Shown in pieces: positions 4,232 through 15,634 of a stretch of DNA of 32,580 nt. Origin of the DNA: Gammaproteobacteria bacterium (GTDB taxonomy: Bacteria; Pseudomonadota; Gammaproteobacteria; SG8-11); NCBI GenBank assembly GCA_016200445.1, contig JACQEQ010000285.1:1-32580 (forward strand), in the 5' to 3' direction. How positions within the stretch are numbered: the first letter of the stretch is position 1; every line of letters begins with the position of its first letter. Both the position numbers and the translations under genes were made by a program. The notes beneath the pieces were generated by a model that worked only from the letters and a program-made list of their open reading frames with translations, did no database searches and was not told the DNA's origin.

Positions 4232-4307
4232 TGGTGCCGGGTAGAGGAATCGAACCCCCGACCTGCCGCTTACAAGGCGGCTGCTCTACCGACTGAGCTA
4301 ACCCGGC
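4232..4307 (-). tRNA. tRNA-Thr (anticodon UGU)
   Basis: 76-nt cloverleaf read on the minus strand. Acceptor GCCGGGT/ACCCGGC; D arm GCTC-AGTCGGTA-GAGC; anticodon arm GCCGC-CTTGTAA-GCGGC (anticodon TGT); T arm GGGGG-TTCGATT-CCTCT; encoded CCA end. Confidence 0.93.
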
Positions 4308-4343: not shown

Positions 4344-5273
4344 TTATTTACACGCGCGCTGTTGCTTTTCGACCTTTTCGGTTCCGCTGACCACATCTTT
4401 GATCTGCGCCGCCGTGATACTGCGCCGCGCATTTTCGTCGACATCGACCCAATACTGCGTGGTGCTGTCGAAGTGTTTTTCAACCACCGGCCGAAAACCC
4501 AATTTAACCAGGGCGTTGACGCGTTTGTTGGCCTGCGCCTCCGAATCGTATTTACCCAGCGAGATCATGTTTTCGTATTCGCCGTTGCTGATGATGCTGG
4601 CGTCGGCGACTTTTTTCTTACGCAACTCTTCCAACCTTTTATTCGCAGCGCGTTCATCCTTGGTGGCTTCGATTACCCACCATTGCTGGGTACTGCGGAT
4701 TTCGTGTTCACGGACGGTGGTTCGCAACCCCAAACCCAGACCGACTAGCCTGGCCATGACGCTTTCGGCATTGCTCAATACGCTGAAGGGACCAAGCGCA
4801 AAACAGGCCGTGGCTGCGGGCTCGGCCGCCGGACGCGGGCGTTCGCGAGCGGCGCGTTCTTCGTTTTTACGTGCCGCCAGATTGGCCTCGATGCGTTCCG
4901 CCTGGCGTGCTTCAGCGGCCAAAACCTTTCTTTCGAGCTCGGTGAGCGGCGGCACCGTCTCGATTACGGGAGTTACCGGCGGCGGAGTACGAACGTTATC
5001 TGCATTGCGCGCCGCCCCCGGGCGCAACGCAGCATCGTCCGCTGACGCTCGCGCTGGATCGCGCGTCCGCTGGGCGCTCGTGTTAGCGGGCTCGGAAGTT
5101 TCGGCCGGACTCTTGGTACCGCTTTCGACTTCGTGCAACAGCCGTATCGACTTATTGCCGCCGGGCGATTTTGTCGCCGACACCGCCACCGGCTCGTTGG
5201 AAGGCTGGTGTAATTGATGCCAAATCAGAAACGCGGCATTGACGAACAACAACAGAAAAAATGCCCACCTCAT
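4344..5273 (-). CDS. SPOR domain-containing membrane-anchored protein
   Basis: N-terminal TM helix MRWAFFLLLFVNAAFLIW, then a low-complexity Ala/Pro/Arg linker, then a C-terminal SPOR-like repeat (FALGPFSVLSNAESVMARLVGLGL ... ISLGKYDSEAQANKRVNALVKLGF). It has a 4-nt ATGA overlap with coaX and sits in the usual position downstream of birA-coaX. Confidence 0.8.
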   Translation of the reverse strand: MRWAFFLLLFVNAAFLIWHQLHQPSNEPVAVSATKSPGGNKSIRLLHEVESGTKSPAETSEPANTSAQRTRDPARASADDAALRPGAARNADNVRTPPPVTPVIETVPPLTELERKVLAAEARQAERIEANLAARKNEERAARERPRPAAEPAATACFALGPFSVLSNAESVMARLVGLGLGLRTTVREHEIRSTQQWWVIEATKDERAANKRLEELRKKKVADASIISNGEYENMISLGKYDSEAQANKRVNALVKLGFRPVVEKHFDSTTQYWVDVDENARRSITAAQIKDVVSGTEKVEKQQRACK

Positions 5274-6022
5274 GAGGTACTCCCGAAGACCGCCAAACCA
5301 TCCAATACCAAATAAGGTTCGTGGCGCAGCGTGCCGCGCAGCAAGGGCAATAGCACCGGGGCATCGCCGCCGGTAATCACGCCGCTGACGGGGGCATTTA
5401 AATTACGCTGCGCATCTGTCAACACCCGATCAACAAAGGCGGCTGCGGTGAGGCGCGTGCCGGCCAGAACCCCGGCTTGGGTATCCGTCGCCAGCCAGAC
5501 TTCCGGCGCCGTTAGGTCTTGCTGCAGGCCACCGATCCCGGAGGTGTCGCGCGTCAGCGCACTGCACATCGTCACCAAGCCGGGAGTGATCAATCCGCCG
5601 CGATGCTGTCCACCGGCATCGAACACATCCGCCGTGATGGCTGTGCCGCAATCGATCACACACACCGCCGTATCGGGCAGAATGCGGCGCGCGGCGATCA
5701 TTCCCAGCCAGCGATCCACGCCCAGCCGGTCGGCGCGCACATAGGAATTTGTCACACCATGGCCCTGCTTCTGCGCATGCGCGAATTCGGTGTGCAGTTG
5801 CCAGCGTTTCTGTACCCAGTCGTAGAGCGCATCGGCGATTTTAGTGCCGACCACGTTCGACACCAACACGCGCTCGGGCGCCGCGATCCCGCGCCATTGC
5901 GCATCCAGATTACGCGCGAACAACGCGGGCTCGTGCGCCACCGCGCCCGTGCGGGTGTGCACGCCGCCTTCCCATAAGGACCACTTCATGCGCGTATTGC
6001 CGATATCTGCCAACAGCATCAT
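5270..6022 (-). CDS. coaX: type III pantothenate kinase
   Basis: MMLLADIGNTRMKW N-terminus typical of CoaX, and 250 aa from ATG 6022. The ORF-track start at 6244 is a read-through of the upstream repeat element. GAGG lies 8 nt upstream of ATG 6022. Confidence 0.9.
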   Translation of the reverse strand: MMLLADIGNTRMKWSLWEGGVHTRTGAVAHEPALFARNLDAQWRGIAAPERVLVSNVVGTKIADALYDWVQKRWQLHTEFAHAQKQGHGVTNSYVRADRLGVDRWLGMIAARRILPDTAVCVIDCGTAITADVFDAGGQHRGGLITPGLVTMCSALTRDTSGIGGLQQDLTAPEVWLATDTQAGVLAGTRLTAAAFVDRVLTDAQRNLNAPVSGVITGGDAPVLLPLLRGTLRHEPYLVLDGLAVFGSTS

Positions 6023-6295
6023 CCTAGTAACCTCAGTTGAACGGTCTGCGGAGTGCGACCCGTTGAGTGTAGGGCAAGGCGCAATGAGCGAGGAATAGCC
6101 AGCTATTCCGATGATTCCTATCGCGCTGGTATTTGCGCGAGGTAGGACGAGTTGCAACGCCGCCATGCGCGCAACGGGGCGTGCTCCACAGACCGTAGCG
6201 GGCCTCACGCCGAGGCTGAAGTCTGGAAAAACTAAAAATATCAATACCTGCGCACACTTGCTTATGCCTCGCAGCGGTCAACTGGGGTTTCTAGG
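6023..6295. mobile_element. MITE-like non-autonomous element, copy 1 (273 bp)
   Basis: Termini CCTAGTAACCTCAGTTGAAC (6023-6042) and GTCAACTGGGGTTTCTAGG (6277-6295) are inverted repeats (about 17/19). A perfect 5-bp direct repeat ATCAT flanks the element (6018-6022 and 6296-6300). It aligns along its whole length with 11736-11972 apart from a 36-bp indel. Central hairpin GGAATAGC-CA-GCTATTCC at 6092-6109. No transposase. Confidence 0.85.
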
Positions 6296-6296
6296 A

Positions 6297-7277
6297 TCAT
6301 GTGGGAATTCCTCGCAAGCTCAGTTCTCCGGAAGCATAAGCGCGGGTAGCGCCACCTTCTGCGAATAATAACGCACCCTGCGCGTCGATGCCGTCCACCG
6401 TGCCGCGCAACGTGTGCTGCGGCAAGTGTAGTTCCGCTGCCTTGCCCACGTAAGCATCGCGCGCGCGCCAGCGCGGCAGAAAATTTGCGAAGCCGTCGCG
6501 CTCGAACGTCTGCAACGCTAGTAGCACGTGTTGCAACAGCATCGCCGCCAGATGATTGCGCGCCGGCATCAGGCCGGTAATCGATACGATGTCGACCCAC
6601 GGTTGCTCGATGGCGGACGCCGCCTCGGCTGCCATCGCCACATTGATACCGATACCGGCGACGACATAACATGGCCCGGAAGACTCGCCGGCCATTTCTA
6701 CTAACACACCGGCCAGCTTCCGGTTCTGCCACACGACATCGTTGGGCCACTTCAAGCCAACACCTGGCACCGCAGCGGCGTGCAGGGCTTCGGCGACGGC
6801 AACTCCTAGCGCGAGACTCAAACCGCCCGCCACCGCAGCACCGGAATTAAAACGCCATAACACCGACAAATAAATGTTGCCGCCAAACGGCGATACCCAG
6901 GCGCGGCCGCGCCGTCCGCGGCCCGAGGTCTGCGTTTCGGCCAGACACGCCCAGCCGCCCGGCGCGCCGCGTTGCGCATGTTCCACCAGATAGGCATTGG
7001 TCGACGGCAATTCCAGATGTACGTCTAAACGTTTCAACGCTGTACGCGCCGGCGGCGACAGCGCGTCGAGAATCTCGTTCGCCGCCAGCAACTCTAACGG
7101 TTCCGGCAAGCGATAACCTTTGCCCGCAACTGCATAGGCGTCGATACCGAGGGCTTTAAGTTTCTGCAGATCGTTCCAAATCGTCGCACGCGTCACACCT
7201 AACTCTTCGCCCAGTGCGACCCCGGAATGAAAGCGGCCGTCGGCGAGCAGGCGCAACAACGCATGCGTATTGCTCAT
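6297..7277 (-). CDS. birA: bifunctional biotin--[acetyl-CoA-carboxylase] ligase / biotin operon repressor
   Basis: N-terminal HTH (LGEELGVTRATIWNDLQKLKALGI), the biotin-protein-ligase GRGRRGRAW motif, 326 aa, and synteny with coaX. Confidence 0.93.
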   Translation of the reverse strand: MSNTHALLRLLADGRFHSGVALGEELGVTRATIWNDLQKLKALGIDAYAVAGKGYRLPEPLELLAANEILDALSPPARTALKRLDVHLELPSTNAYLVEHAQRGAPGGWACLAETQTSGRGRRGRAWVSPFGGNIYLSVLWRFNSGAAVAGGLSLALGVAVAEALHAAAVPGVGLKWPNDVVWQNRKLAGVLVEMAGESSGPCYVVAGIGINVAMAAEAASAIEQPWVDIVSITGLMPARNHLAAMLLQHVLLALQTFERDGFANFLPRWRARDAYVGKAAELHLPQHTLRGTVDGIDAQGALLFAEGGATRAYASGELSLRGIPT

Positions 7278-11024: not shown

Positions 11025-11735
11025 TTATTCACCTAAATACGCATGCCGGACCTGCGCATTGGTCAGCAGTTTTTCAGCCGCATCTGTCAACGCAATGGTT
11101 CCGCTTTCCATCACGTAGCCGCGTTGGCTGATTTCCAAAGCGCGCTTGGCATTCTGTTCCACCAGCAGAATCGTTACACCCTCCTGCGCAATAGCGCGGA
11201 TGGTTGTGAAAATCTTTTCCACCATCAGCGGCGCCAGGCCCATGCTGGGCTCGTCCAACAGCAACAGCCGGGGCTGACTCATCAGCGCACGTCCCATGGC
11301 CAGCATTTGCTGCTCGCCACCAGACAAGGTGCCCGCTTGTTGCTTGCAGCGTTCCGCCAGGCGCGGGAATAACGCGAACACGCGTTCCAGATCGTTTTTT
11401 ATCCCGGCGCGGTCCGTACGCGAGTACCCGCCCATGTCGAGATTTTCACCAACACTCATACGCCCGAAGATGCCACGCCCCTCCGGCACCAAAGCCAAGC
11501 CGCAGCGCGCGATCAGGTGCGCAGGTTGATGTGTAATCGCTTTACCATCGTAAAGCACTGACCCGTGTGCGACCGGCAGCAATCCACACAGCGCTTTCAG
11601 CAGGGTGGATTTTCCCGCGCCGTTGGCGCCGATCAGACACACCAGCTCACCGCGTTCGATCTGCAGGTCGACGCCCTTCACCGCTTTGATGCCCCCGTAC
11701 GACACCGCAAATTGTTTGAGTTCGAGCAGGCTCAA
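11025..11735 (-). CDS. livF: branched-chain amino acid ABC transporter ATP-binding protein LivF
   Basis: Walker A GANGAGKST, signature LSGGEQQML, Walker B LLLLDEP. 236 aa if started at TTG 11735 (product SLLELKQFAVSYGG), with GAGG 8 nt upstream. The ORF-track start at 11885 is a read-through of the repeat element. Confidence 0.9.
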   Translation of the reverse strand: MSLLELKQFAVSYGGIKAVKGVDLQIERGELVCLIGANGAGKSTLLKALCGLLPVAHGSVLYDGKAITHQPAHLIARCGLALVPEGRGIFGRMSVGENLDMGGYSRTDRAGIKNDLERVFALFPRLAERCKQQAGTLSGGEQQMLAMGRALMSQPRLLLLDEPSMGLAPLMVEKIFTTIRAIAQEGVTILLVEQNAKRALEISQRGYVMESGTIALTDAAEKLLTNAQVRHAYLGE

Positions 11736-11972
11736 CCTAGAAACCTCAGTTGGACGATCTGCAGAGTGCGTCCCGTTGGACGCAGGGCAAGGCGCAACGA
11801 GCGAGGAATAGCGAGCTATTCCGACGAGTTGCAACGTAGCCATGTGCACAACGGGGCGTGCTCCGCAGGTCGTAGCGGGGCTCACCTTCAGGGTGAAGCG
11901 TCATTTGGCCATGATCCTTAATAACACCATGCACTTGCTTATGCCTTGTAGCGGTCAACTGAGGTTTCTAGG
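11736..11972. mobile_element. MITE-like non-autonomous element, copy 2 (237 bp)
   Basis: Termini CCTAGAAACCTCAGTTGGAC (11736-11755) and GTCAACTGAGGTTTCTAGG (11954-11972) share 17 nt of perfect inverted repeat. The flanks are CTCAA / TTCAG and share the central TCA. Same plus-strand orientation as copy 1. Central hairpin GGAATAGC-GA-GCTATTCC at 11805-11822. Confidence 0.85.
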
Positions 11973-11973
11973 T

Positions 11974-12750
11974 TCAGGCTACGGCTCCGCCCAGATAGGC
12001 TTCGATCACGCGCGGATCACAACGCACCTGCGCCGGAATGCCTTCGGCGATTTTTTTGCCGTAGTCAAGCACTGCTACCCGGTCGCACAAACCCATCACC
12101 AGTTTCACGTCGTGCTCGATCAGCAGCAAGGTCACTCCCAACTCGCTGCGCAGCCGTTGCAGCAACTGCGTCAACGCGGCACGCTCGCTGGGATTCATGC
12201 CGGCGGCGGGTTCGTCCAGGGCGAGCATTTTGGGGTCGGTCGCCAACGCGCGCGCGATTTCCAGGCGGCGTTGATCGCCGTATGACAAATGTTTGGCCAG
12301 CGCACGCGCGTGCGTGCCGATGCCGGCCACGTCGAGCAATTCGTGGGCACGCTTGCGCATCGCCGCTTCTTCGCCGCAGACGCGTGCCGGGCGTGTAATC
12401 GCGCCCCACACGCCGGTGCGGGTACGGCAATGCCGCCCGACCATGACATTTTCCAAGGCGCTCATGTTGGCGAACAGGCGAATGTTTTGAAAGGTGCGCG
12501 CCAAGCCTAAATGCACGATCGCGTGCGGCTTGTGTGCCAGCAACGCCTGCCCGTCAAAATGCACTTGTCCGCCGGTGGCGGTATACAGCCCGGTGAGCAC
12601 ATTAAACAAGGTTGTTTTGCCTGCGCCATTGGGTCCGATCAAACCAAAAATTTCACCGGCGTTGACCGTCAGCGATACATCGCACAACGCGGCCAGGCCG
12701 CCGAAAGATTTGTCGATATGGGCTGCCAGCAGCAGCGGCGGCGCGTTCAT
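11974..12750 (-). CDS. livG: branched-chain amino acid ABC transporter ATP-binding protein LivG
   Basis: Walker A GPNGAGKTT, signature LSYGDQRRLEIA, Walker B LALDEPAAG, and the LivG-type C-terminal extension. 258 aa. ATGA overlap with livM. Confidence 0.92.
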   Translation of the reverse strand: MNAPPLLLAAHIDKSFGGLAALCDVSLTVNAGEIFGLIGPNGAGKTTLFNVLTGLYTATGGQVHFDGQALLAHKPHAIVHLGLARTFQNIRLFANMSALENVMVGRHCRTRTGVWGAITRPARVCGEEAAMRKRAHELLDVAGIGTHARALAKHLSYGDQRRLEIARALATDPKMLALDEPAAGMNPSERAALTQLLQRLRSELGVTLLLIEHDVKLVMGLCDRVAVLDYGKKIAEGIPAQVRCDPRVIEAYLGGAVA

Positions 12751-13885: not shown

Positions 13886-15634
13886 TCATCGAACGTCACC
13901 TGCCTTGATTAGCGCGATCGTTAACTGCCGACTCCCACCATTTAAACGCGCCACATGCTGTAATAACTCAAGACGCTCGGCATTGGTCATCGCGCTGTTT
14001 AAAAATAGCAGTTCAGCAAACAAATCGGTCATCGGCGTGTCTTCACGATACGTAAGGTACGTCGCCATTTCATACATCAAGCGCGCATAACTCTGCGGGC
14101 GCTGCGCCATAGTACGCAGTACGGCCGCAGGCAACATCGGGTGGAAAGAAAATATCTCATAGCGTTCGATCAACGCGCTGTTTTCAGCCGTGCGGCGCAA
14201 CACCACCACGGCGGATGGTTCCCGATAGATGCGCGCCCATTCGGTGATGGGAAATAAGCGCTCCAATTCTGCCGGTGAACCCACTACCGCATAATTTATA
14301 TTCCACCGCGCTAACTCCTCCGGGTGGTCAAGATAGCGATTGGTGTCGCCAAATACCGTGTGGTGGTTGTATTGAAAAATGCGCCGCTGCGGAGTGATGA
14401 AAAAGGCCAGATAACCGCCAAAATGGCCTGAATTATAGAGGTTGCCCGGCAGGTTCACGTCTTGGATGAAGCGCACCGAACCGGCGGGAAGAAATTCGTC
14501 GCTGATGCGGTAGCCGAACGACTGCGGCGTGTGCGGTCCGGCAAATTTTATAGCGACGATATACGCAGCCAGCGCTAAAGCAAATGCAGACAACGCAAGC
14601 GTTGGCAGTAGTGGGTAACGGCGTTTTACTGCCAGCGCGGAAATAATTTGTGTAGCTAGCGTTGCGAGCAACGCGGCATCGAGCAACGCAAACACGCCGA
14701 TGACGCGCGAGTAGCGCACGGCGAGAATGGCAAACGGTGCAACGACCAGCAGCTGCGTCAGGTCGAGCGTGCGGCGCGCGCCGATGAGCGCCGCAAGCGT
14801 TATCGCCAACAATATCCAAAATAGTTTGTGTTCGCGCCAATTCGCCGGTTGGAATTCCATGACGCCAGCGACCAAGGCGTTGCCGTTGATGAATTGCAGA
14901 AAAATATCGTAGGAGCGCAAACCGTAGGGATCGGCGAGCAGCGCGAGCAATGTGAGGCCACAGACAATATTCAACACCCGCAGCTGTTCGCGCGACATGG
15001 GTACCATTCCGCTCCAATGGGCGAAGCGCGCGCCGAACCAGTGCTTGATATTTTCTCCAGCTACAAATGCAAGCAATACGATCAAACCGAAGATTGCGCC
15101 ATGCAATGAATCCCACAGCACCAATATCCCCGGAATTAAAAAAAGAAATTTAATGTCACAACGCTGCGCCCGGCAGCAATAGAGCAGATAACTGAGCGCT
15201 GCAATACCCAGCAATGAAAATAACTCAGGCCGTTCGATATAGCGGTAAAAACCCGCCGTCACGGCGGCGACCACTAACATGGCGCTCAACGCGGACGTTG
15301 CGCCGTGCACGCGGCAGGTGCGGTAAACAAGCACGGCAATCGCAAGCGTCACTAACACCTTCAGCGCCAACAACCCACTGCCGCCCCACAGATCGTAGAT
15401 CAGGAAAAATAAAATCTGACTCAACCATTCGTGATTGCTAAACGGTGTTCCAAACGCCGTGTACGAAAAACGCTCTTCATTGACGAGGTGGCCGGTGCTT
15501 AACATTTCGCGGCCGTTGGCTAAATGCCAATACATGTCGTAATCGAACACCGGGTATAAAACGACGACTACAACGCTTGCCAGCATTGCGGCGATAACGA
15601 GTAACCGGGAGGAAAAGACGTTCGGGACAACCAT
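13886..15634 (-). CDS. polytopic membrane protein with a C-terminal soluble domain, possibly a GT-C-fold glycosyltransferase-like protein
   Basis: 582-codon ORF with at least 10 hydrophobic segments in the first 370 aa or so. An acidic first-loop motif FDYDMYWHLANGRE ... NHEWL is reminiscent of GT-C enzymes. The C-terminal 200 aa or so are hydrophilic. It is packed between livH (11-nt gap) and livM (14-nt gap). The CDS call is solid; the function is a guess. Confidence 0.8.
   Translation of the reverse strand: MVVPNVFSSRLLVIAAMLASVVVVVLYPVFDYDMYWHLANGREMLSTGHLVNEERFSYTAFGTPFSNHEWLSQILFFLIYDLWGGSGLLALKVLVTLAIAVLVYRTCRVHGATSALSAMLVVAAVTAGFYRYIERPELFSLLGIAALSYLLYCCRAQRCDIKFLFLIPGILVLWDSLHGAIFGLIVLLAFVAGENIKHWFGARFAHWSGMVPMSREQLRVLNIVCGLTLLALLADPYGLRSYDIFLQFINGNALVAGVMEFQPANWREHKLFWILLAITLAALIGARRTLDLTQLLVVAPFAILAVRYSRVIGVFALLDAALLATLATQIISALAVKRRYPLLPTLALSAFALALAAYIVAIKFAGPHTPQSFGYRISDEFLPAGSVRFIQDVNLPGNLYNSGHFGGYLAFFITPQRRIFQYNHHTVFGDTNRYLDHPEELARWNINYAVVGSPAELERLFPITEWARIYREPSAVVVLRRTAENSALIERYEIFSFHPMLPAAVLRTMAQRPQSYARLMYEMATYLTYREDTPMTDLFAELLFLNSAMTNAERLELLQHVARLNGGSRQLTIALIKAGDVR

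Follow-up and report, generated by a model that had tools for sequence, protein, structure and literature searches.

The window analyzed here is a 32.6-kb stretch of gammaproteobacterial DNA that contains two copies of a miniature inverted-repeat transposable element (MITE), which we number copy 1 (positions 6023-6295) and copy 2 (11736-11972). Copy 2 lies between livG and livF, and it is very likely a non-autonomous derivative of an IS1380-family insertion sequence (IS) that inserted at the overlap between the livG stop codon and the livF start codon, where, in our proposal, the translational coupling of the two genes has been rebuilt. We assign copy 2 to an IS1380-derived MITE family because full-length elements sharing its left end code for a transposase of the IS1380 family.

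Copy 2, its empty sites and its putative autonomous partner

Copy 2 is 237 bp long. We refer to its plus strand, which forms the stable fold, as the A strand, and to its minus strand, which is transposase-sense and is carried by the liv mRNA, as the B strand. Its termini (11736-11752, adjoining livF, and 11956-11972, adjoining livG, both given on the plus strand) read CCTAGAAACCTCAGTTG and CAACTGAGGTTTCTAGG and are complementary at 17 of 17 nt, and the window contains four matches to the terminus at three or fewer mismatches, compared with a chance expectation of 0.01. Both flanking genes are on the minus strand: livG (11974-12750) encodes an ABC ATPase of 258 aa that matches NF008449 (E 2e-82), and livF (11025-11735) encodes an ABC ATPase that is 236 aa long when read from TTG, the length found in close relatives, and that matches NF008626 (E 4.6e-87). 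The plus-strand flanks of copy 2, CTCAA (11731-11735) and TTCAG (11973-11977), are equal at three of five positions. On the coding strand, the upstream copy of this target duplication reads CTGAA and holds the livG stop codon (TGA, 11976-11974), and the downstream copy reads TTGAG and holds a TTG (11735-11733) at the position of the LivF start in relatives, so that the junction reads ...GTA GCC TGA A, then the element, then TTG AGC CTG CTC.... The terminus adjoining livF reads CAACUGAGGUUUCUAGG on the mRNA strand and includes a GAGG (11747-11744) located 8 nt before the TTG, and the terminus adjoining livG corresponds to the IRL, the left inverted repeat found in the autonomous IS1380 elements described below. 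The coordinates, length, flanks and codons that the original prediction gave for copy 2 were all found to be correct when the sequence was re-read. Its description of copy 2 as a MITE also holds: copy 2 is short, lacks a transposase gene, has perfect 17-nt inverted termini and target duplications, and is one of a set of dispersed copies.

We compared this junction with those of relatives whose LivF proteins are 236 aa long and share 85-92% amino-acid identity, inspecting seven contigs at livG/livF. In all seven, livG and livF overlap by 4 bp without an element, in the arrangement gc[G/C]TGA[A/G]cctgctcgaactc, and in contig L122 synteny with the window extends to either side. Because the overlap is uninterrupted in seven relatives, copy 2 represents a true insertion. 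The comparison thus supplies seven empty sites for the earlier claim that copy 2 had entered an NTGA stop/start overlap. The relatives' pentamers are GTGAA (four cases), GTGAG (two cases, which are copies of a single sequence) and CTGAA (one case), and the LivF N-terminus is M[N/S]LLELKQF in all close relatives. Judging from sequence, the TTG is at the ancestral position of the livF start. The accompanying claim that both mismatches between the duplicated pentamers arose by drift in the upstream repeat is not favored, since the relatives never have T at position 1 and have A at position 5 in five of seven cases. Two changes are required from an ancestral CTGAA (both downstream, with CTG changed to TTG), from TTGAA (one per copy) or from TTGAG, and three are required from GTGAA; TTGAA is the commonest target of the MITE family. 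An ancestral CTGAA or TTGAA would be at least as parsimonious as the TTGAG that had been assumed. In contig L124 (2940-2960), livF overlaps the livG stop with a CTG start (gcCTGAAcc), and the gene caller therefore took a GTG 18 codons downstream; it is possible that this CTG is a natural start kept by coupling.

The search for an autonomous partner of the MITE considered metagenome termini that are followed by a base absent from the MITE. Contigs L157, L162, L185, L228, L152 and L146/L178 contain elements of 1625-1655 bp that start with CCTAGAAACC[G/C]CAGTTG, have a 17-nt IRL identical to that of the MITE, and have at the other end a right inverted repeat (IRR) that is degenerate, TAACTGCGGTATTTAGG. 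These autonomous elements are flanked by the same kind of pentamer as the MITE (TAGAA/TAGAA in L157, for example), and each has a single open reading frame (ORF) of 514-524 aa that matches PF13701 (E 8.6e-36). The ORF of L162 scores 181.2 bits against NF033539, 'IS1380 family transposase', for which the cut-off is 180, and the ORF of L157 scores 127 bits, which is under the cut-off, yet NF033539 is its best match. In the ISfinder description of the IS1380 family, the ends begin with CC and the direct repeats are 4-5 bp long; likewise, copy 2 has the ends CCTAG...CTAGG and 5-bp duplications. ORFs lying beside solitary termini in the genome loci (at least 120) were considered as candidate transposases and rejected, all of them being host genes. 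More than 20 contigs of metagenome Ga0308414 (L128, L130, L132, L145, L148, L150, L157 and others) end about 100 nt inside an L157-type left end, which indicates that the element is present at very high copy number and disrupts assembly.

The autonomous elements and the MITE have a similar layout at the left end. About 58 nt separate the left repeat of the IS from a hairpin, CTCACCC-AATG-GGTGAA, that has the transposase ATG in its loop. On the B strand of the MITE, the terminus is followed by about 55 variable nt and then, at about 75 nt, by CTCACC-loop-GGTGAG. In copy 2, these parts correspond to a variable spacer (11899-11949, plus strand), which is the counterpart of the autonomous element's 5' untranslated region, and to a small hairpin with the sequence CTCACC-loop-GGTGAAG (11881-11898, plus strand), which lies about 75 nt from the IRL and is the positional counterpart of the transposase-ATG hairpin. 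The whole MITE consists of one IS left end, a hairpin module of about 120 nt (longer in some relatives), and a second, inverted IRL. The IS has no such module. That the module might be a part of the autonomous IS was rejected on two grounds: the transposase ORF extends into the right repeat at the end of the IS, and an nhmmer search with a profile of the module matches MITE copies only. A conserved ORF is not seen in the MITE family, and its alignment gaps are not multiples of three.

Target rule, stop/start overlaps and translation of livF

A scan for the terminus in one genome per species yielded at least 120 loci, and a metagenome scan yielded at least 120 more; the family counts reported here are taken from the matches listed. 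The hosts of the genome loci are Rhodocyclales, Burkholderiales, Thiobacillus, Gallionella, Sulfuricella, Cellvibrionaceae, Lysobacterales and others, with over 100 loci in the Beta- and Gammaproteobacteria, and pairing of the termini gives two size classes of about 163 bp and about 235 bp. Cultured carriers include Thiobacillus denitrificans RG (L097), Pseudothauera lacus D20 (L007), Denitromonas iodatirespirans IR-12 (L076) and Microbulbifer magnicolonia GG15 (L116). Among 98 paired elements, the 5-bp flanks are identical at five of five positions in 57 and at four of five positions in 21. The target consensus is W-T-N-A-W, in which T2 and A4 never vary and the outer positions, 1 and 5, are usually A or T. 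The core of the 57 perfect duplications is TGA in 18, TTA in 17, TAA in 15 and TCA in 7, and about two thirds of the insertions are plainly intergenic. The predicted duplication length of 5 bp is borne out by these 57 identical pentamers and by the direct repetition of ATAAA, TTAAT, TTCAC and CTGAG. Because non-palindromic pentamers are repeated directly, we rejected an arrangement like that of the IS1031 group, in which the duplication would be 3 bp (TCA) and each terminus would gain one base. The original prediction had proposed an NTGA or TCA type of target and had named copies without a TGA/TCA core as evidence that would tell against it. Overlaps are indeed hit and enriched, as described below. 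However, the core is T-N-A, and more than half of the 57 lack TGA or TCA, so the narrow idea fails and the broader T-N-A form of it stands.

The 163-bp class (L001, L005, L038, L063, L067 and others) shares these termini, occurs in Cellvibrionaceae-like genomes, and amounts to the IS left end simply folded back on itself around the hairpin with the start codon. At position 11 the terminus has either T or G, and the opposite end agrees with it in every case (G-C in 23 and U-A in 11 of 36 elements; alignment columns 11 and 274), and therefore the two ends of one copy change together. Viral contigs L248-L275 contain 28 matches to a degenerate terminus, mostly with C or T at position 6 and none with a partner terminus; these look unrelated and may represent chance or a distant family. 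A BLAST search of the terminus against plasmids returned nothing useful, and a full-text literature search with the terminus string returned only unrelated primers.

Overlapping stop and start codons are the commonest translational-coupling device in bacterial operons, and an insertion at such a site is expected to be harmful. For a census of insertion sites, the empty sites were rebuilt, coding frames were scored by codon-usage log-odds trained on the loci, and each W-T-N-A-W pentamer was classed as lying at the stop of a coding frame, at a start, or at both. Stop/start overlaps account for 8 of 57 insertions, compared with 22 of 6016 for the other pentamers that could not be placed within genes with confidence (Fisher 2e-10), so the enrichment that the original prediction had suggested for a wider census is present in the family. 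When only TGA and TCA cores are counted, the figures are 8 of 28 insertions and 22 of 2850 other pentamers, and at TGA-core gene ends an overlapping start is present in 8 of 8 insertions and at 22 of 109 available sites. About 0.4-4% of the available pentamers lie at stop/start overlaps, and on a cautious reading the enrichment at overlaps would be roughly 8- to 35-fold. The eight overlap cases fall between Pfam-confirmed genes, among them pyrB/amidohydrolase (dihydroorotase), DUF2201/Hsp33, a pair ending in holA, and deacetylase/FAD oxidoreductase. Since the gene pairs differ, the eight insertions are independent events. The excess at overlaps may reflect targeting or survival, which sequence alone does not separate.

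Copy 1 (273 bp, 6023-6295, plus strand) is located at the overlap of the birA stop and the coaX start, where it separates the birA stop (6299-6297) from the coaX ATG (6022-6020). Its duplication, ATCAT, is identical at five of five positions (6018-6022 and 6296-6300), and the coding strand reads ...CAC ATGAT, then the element, then ATGAT GCTG.... NCBIfam profiles identify 6297-7277 as BirA and 5270-6022 as type III pantothenate kinase (coaX), and the genes neighboring both copies are all on the minus strand. Copy 1 has one mismatch per terminus and 36 extra nt (6110-6145) at the hairpin apex. It is 82% identical to copy 2, and the two lie in the same plus-strand orientation, as had been noted originally.

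Because the duplication left the TGA upstream and the TTG downstream of copy 2, the reading frames of both livG and livF are intact. The predicted mRNA fold of the element and its flanks has an energy of -110.8 kcal/mol (z = -7.2), and in this fold the termini and the duplicated pentamers form a closing helix that places the livG UGA opposite the livF UUG. This stop-opposite-start geometry follows from the insertion mechanism and therefore holds for every junction insertion. We propose that the termini of the element would pair in the liv mRNA into a helix of about 20 bp that buries the UUG and the GAGG 8 nt upstream of it, and that a ribosome terminating on livG would melt this closing helix, exposing the livF start only when livG is translated. 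By this classical unmasking logic, translational coupling would be rebuilt rather than lost. Such tolerance, together with the TNA target rule, could account for the over-representation of overlaps among surviving insertions. We infer from the predicted fold that livF may be coupled to livG by unmasking of this kind. A Shine-Dalgarno sequence supplied by the terminus was rejected as a general feature, since position 11 is G and not T in most copies, which changes GAGG to GCGG.

Two other accounts of livF expression were considered. The original prediction had taken the TTG to be the sole plausible livF start. This is too strong a statement, since the frame is open into the element, where it contains an ATG (11843-11841) and a GTG (11885-11883), and LivF might instead start at this ATG, or at the GTG, which would make it 36 to 50 residues longer at the N-terminus. 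Read from 11885, the frame stays open across the terminus into livF, a similar open frame leads from copy 1 into coaX, and ATG is a better initiator than TTG. However, the ATG at 11843 is inside the long hairpin and lacks a purine-rich Shine-Dalgarno sequence before it, the TTG has GAGG 8 nt ahead of it, close relatives all start at the N-terminus given above, and an open frame of about 50 codons is not unusual in 57% G+C DNA, all of which makes a start within the element unlikely. No recognizable ribosome-binding site precedes either of the two in-element starts, both of which lie within the long hairpin. It is less likely still that the insertion is polar, such that livF (and coaX, in the case of copy 1) is poorly expressed or being lost and the frames are intact only because the insertion is recent. 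Such an effect might be expected from 237 nt of highly structured, untranslated RNA between the formerly coupled livG and livF, and the insertion is present in none of the seven relatives. Nevertheless, the duplication has diverged at two of five positions and the two copies are only 82% identical, which argues that the insertions are not very recent; livF, livG, birA and coaX each remain full length and cover their family profiles completely; and eight independent junction insertions in other genomes have intact flanking genes. The mRNA-sense frame is open from the in-element starts of copy 2 (ATG 11843 and GTG 11885) into livF and from an ATG within copy 1 (6023-6262) into coaX. Automated gene callers will probably run both genes on into the element and so annotate lengthened proteins. 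A protein search found no exact 236-aa entry for the LivF of the window.

Several observations weigh against the reading of copy 2 as an IS1380-derived insertion with rebuilt coupling. Copy 2's own duplication is retained at only three of five positions. The IS and the MITE can be aligned by BLAST over the 17-nt terminus only, and the correspondence of their leaders and hairpins is therefore positional. Within the 32.6-kb window there is no ORF for a transposase of the IS1380 kind, so that mobilization in trans is suggested by the shared termini only. The denominator of the enrichment probably includes intragenic pentamers, and the true enrichment may therefore be nearer 8-fold than 35-fold; moreover, the gene calls of the census come from a home-made codon-usage score. 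Lastly, the GAGG at the downstream end is present in four of the eight junction insertions, with GCGG in the other four, and the in-frame ATG at 11843-11841 might be used as the livF start instead.

The hairpin module and the orientation of insertions

The interiors of the ~235-bp class have diverged strongly, yet their length and their conserved blocks are kept. In copy 2, the long internal hairpin module occupies 11753-11873 (plus strand), and its arms are 11753-11779 and 11849-11873; within it, the internal loops (11786-11801 and 11823-11844) are conserved, and the apical hairpin (11805-11822) is variable. The consensus structure of 36 members has 58 pairs, 34 of which have double-sided changes, and 28 of the 33 pairs of the long hairpin covary through compensatory changes. 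Paired cells make up 95.7% of the total, compared with 78.7% after column shuffling and 31-41% after sliding of the partners, and the covariation score is 0.471 versus 0.157, with 0 of 500 shuffles scoring as high. There are 217 G.U cells and 11 A.C cells, which indicates that pairing takes place on one strand only. The mean fold energy is -126 kcal/mol for the A strand versus -107 kcal/mol for the other strand, with the A strand folding more stably than its complement in 35 of 36 elements. The extra DNA of longer members (the 36 nt of copy 1 and the larger insertions of members 304 to 408 bp long; L007, L097 and L101) is always located at the hairpin apex, with the base intact. Strand-asymmetric stability is also found in 23 of 23 members of the 163-bp class. 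Strand-biased C-to-T mutation was rejected as the source of the excess of G.U pairs: the exposed (coding, lagging-template) strand is B, for which the opposite asymmetry is predicted, and many pairs have changed on both sides. These comparisons point to selection that keeps the module paired, on one strand only.

The orientation of the elements relative to the surrounding genes is also biased. Of the members of the ~235-bp class that are flanked by co-directional genes, 19 have the A strand antisense to these genes and 2 have it in the sense direction (p = 2e-4), and the A strand is antisense in all eight junction insertions, including both copies in the window. Host mRNAs therefore carry the weaker, transposase-sense B strand. 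The six co-directional cases of the 163-bp class show no such bias (three antisense, three sense). The orientation rule may reflect host selection against a very stable strand in the operon transcript, and the hairpin may act in a single-stranded DNA step of transposition or as RNA. Selection on the copies that transpose onward points to a cis-acting, single-stranded form. More tentatively, and with the balance of our judgment against it, the ~235-bp family might be an operon-compatible mobile element that combines a coupling-preserving terminal stem with a hairpin that acts in cis, as single-stranded DNA or RNA, and is required for IS1380-type transposition or its control; a stem of this kind would explain the excess at overlapping stop and start codons. 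We know of no requirement for a cis hairpin in the IS1380 family or in its piggyBac relatives.

The strong covariation of the hairpin, its G.U-specific strand asymmetry, the tolerance of extra DNA at the apex only, and the orientation bias of 19 to 2 would also be in keeping with an element that is primarily a functional structured RNA gene or regulatory module, such as an A-strand antisense or small RNA, that is incidentally mobile and owes its position in operons to its function. We regard this as rather unlikely. Consensus scans revealed neither a sigma-70-like promoter nor a terminator in or beside copy 2, and host transcription yields the B strand in nearly all operon copies. Rfam 15 gave no match to the element at gathering score in the window scan and none at E <=10 for copy 2 or L003. 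The termini, duplications, empty sites and autonomous partner account for the presence of the element without a function, and a trans-acting RNA alone would not favor the spread of copies that keep their pairing. Since the whole element folds as a hairpin with one strand favored, as in REPINs, we also considered a repeat that no transposase drives, resembling repetitive extragenic palindromic (REP) sequences and REPINs, or a palindrome spread by recombination, whose likeness to IS ends is coincidental. The clean 5-bp duplications of 57 of 98 copies among the matches listed, the fixed T-N-A rule, the identity of the 17-nt terminus to that of IS1380 elements, and the existence of precise empty sites make this exceedingly improbable. 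An IS1380-derived MITE remains the reading that we prefer.

Elsewhere in the window, a 582-aa multi-pass membrane ORF (13886-15634, minus strand) lies between livH and livM, splitting the liv permease genes, and it has no Pfam or NCBIfam match. A 566-aa counterpart is found in the same place in the syntenic contig L122, and not in L121 or L124. The 582-aa product, a membrane protein lacking a family match, was rejected as a candidate transposase; nor does it bear any relation to the 584-aa ORF of L059, which has the appearance of a secreted repeat protein. The only Rfam match in the window is a tRNA gene at 4235-4307 (minus strand).

The family differs from a routine repeat in three features: the excess at overlaps, the structural constraint on one strand, and the near-fixed orientation in operons. 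The T-N-A target rule within a 5-bp duplication fits NTGA overlaps, so that the MITE can split such junctions while both genes stay intact. Repeated, independent cases of this are livG/livF, birA/coaX, pyrB/dihydroorotase, the pair ending in holA, and others. If the terminal stem restores coupling, these junctions are natural experiments on the tolerable distance between coupled genes. In addition, the poorly understood IS1380 group gains a large set of non-autonomous derivatives with a strand-specific structural constraint, which offers a concrete handle on the mechanism of transposition.

Comparison with known mobile elements

REPINs, the REP doublets mobilized by RAYT, and the IS200/IS605 derivatives rely on strand-specific hairpins of a single strand, which are regarded as their active form. 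These systems have no target duplication and no DDE-type termini, insert beside a fixed tetra- or pentanucleotide, and depend on HUH tyrosine transposases. In contrast, the MITE described here has target duplications and DDE-type termini, and its partner is a DDE transposase.

ERIC and Correia (NEMIS) elements are small, bounded by inverted repeats and co-transcribed, and they form long RNA hairpins with orientation-dependent effects on mRNA (PMC2229807). The MITE resembles them in its small size, its inverted-repeat boundaries and its folding into long RNA hairpins. It differs from them in that ERIC and Correia elements duplicate TA, relate to other IS families and are mostly intergenic. Neither a preference for stop/start overlaps nor one-strand-only covariation is described for ERIC and Correia in that review (PMC2229807). 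RUP of Streptococcus pneumoniae is a MITE derived from IS630-Spn1 that was assigned by its shared termini and target (PMC2229807), and the same logic of assignment is applied here. However, RUP is 107 bp long and has a TA target, and a structured module is not reported for it. The TA target common to the IS630-type MITEs (ERIC, Correia and RUP) is replaced in the present family by a 5-bp W-T-N-A-W duplication.

ISEcp1, which is the best-known IS1380-family member, has the left repeat CCTAGATTCTACGT and 5-bp direct repeats (PMC6061673). The ends begin with CC in ISEcp1 as in copy 2, with the IRL CCTAGATTCTACGT in the former and CCTAGAAACCTCAG in the latter. The direct repeats reported for ISEcp1 include ACTCA, TAATA and TAAGA (PMC6061673), compared with the strict T-N-A target of the MITE. 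The autonomous elements have a degenerate IRR and no hairpin module, whereas the MITE lacks a transposase gene and has IRL copies at both of its ends. A literature search for IS1380 together with miniature inverted-repeat elements found no relevant paper and no description of an IS1380-derived MITE, and the family appears to be new.

IS1380 is taken as the prokaryotic outgroup of the piggyBac transposons, its eukaryotic relatives (PMC10813416). The MITE differs from piggyBac in that it is bacterial, has a 5-bp duplication with a free central base rather than the 4-bp TTAA, and has no piggyBac-type transposase. The piggyBac terminus, CCCTAGAAAGATA (a string confirmed in piggyBac papers), shares CCTAGAAA with the MITE, a resemblance that may be due to chance. 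Both also insert at a short palindromic T..A target, which is TTAA for piggyBac and W-T-N-A-W for the MITE.

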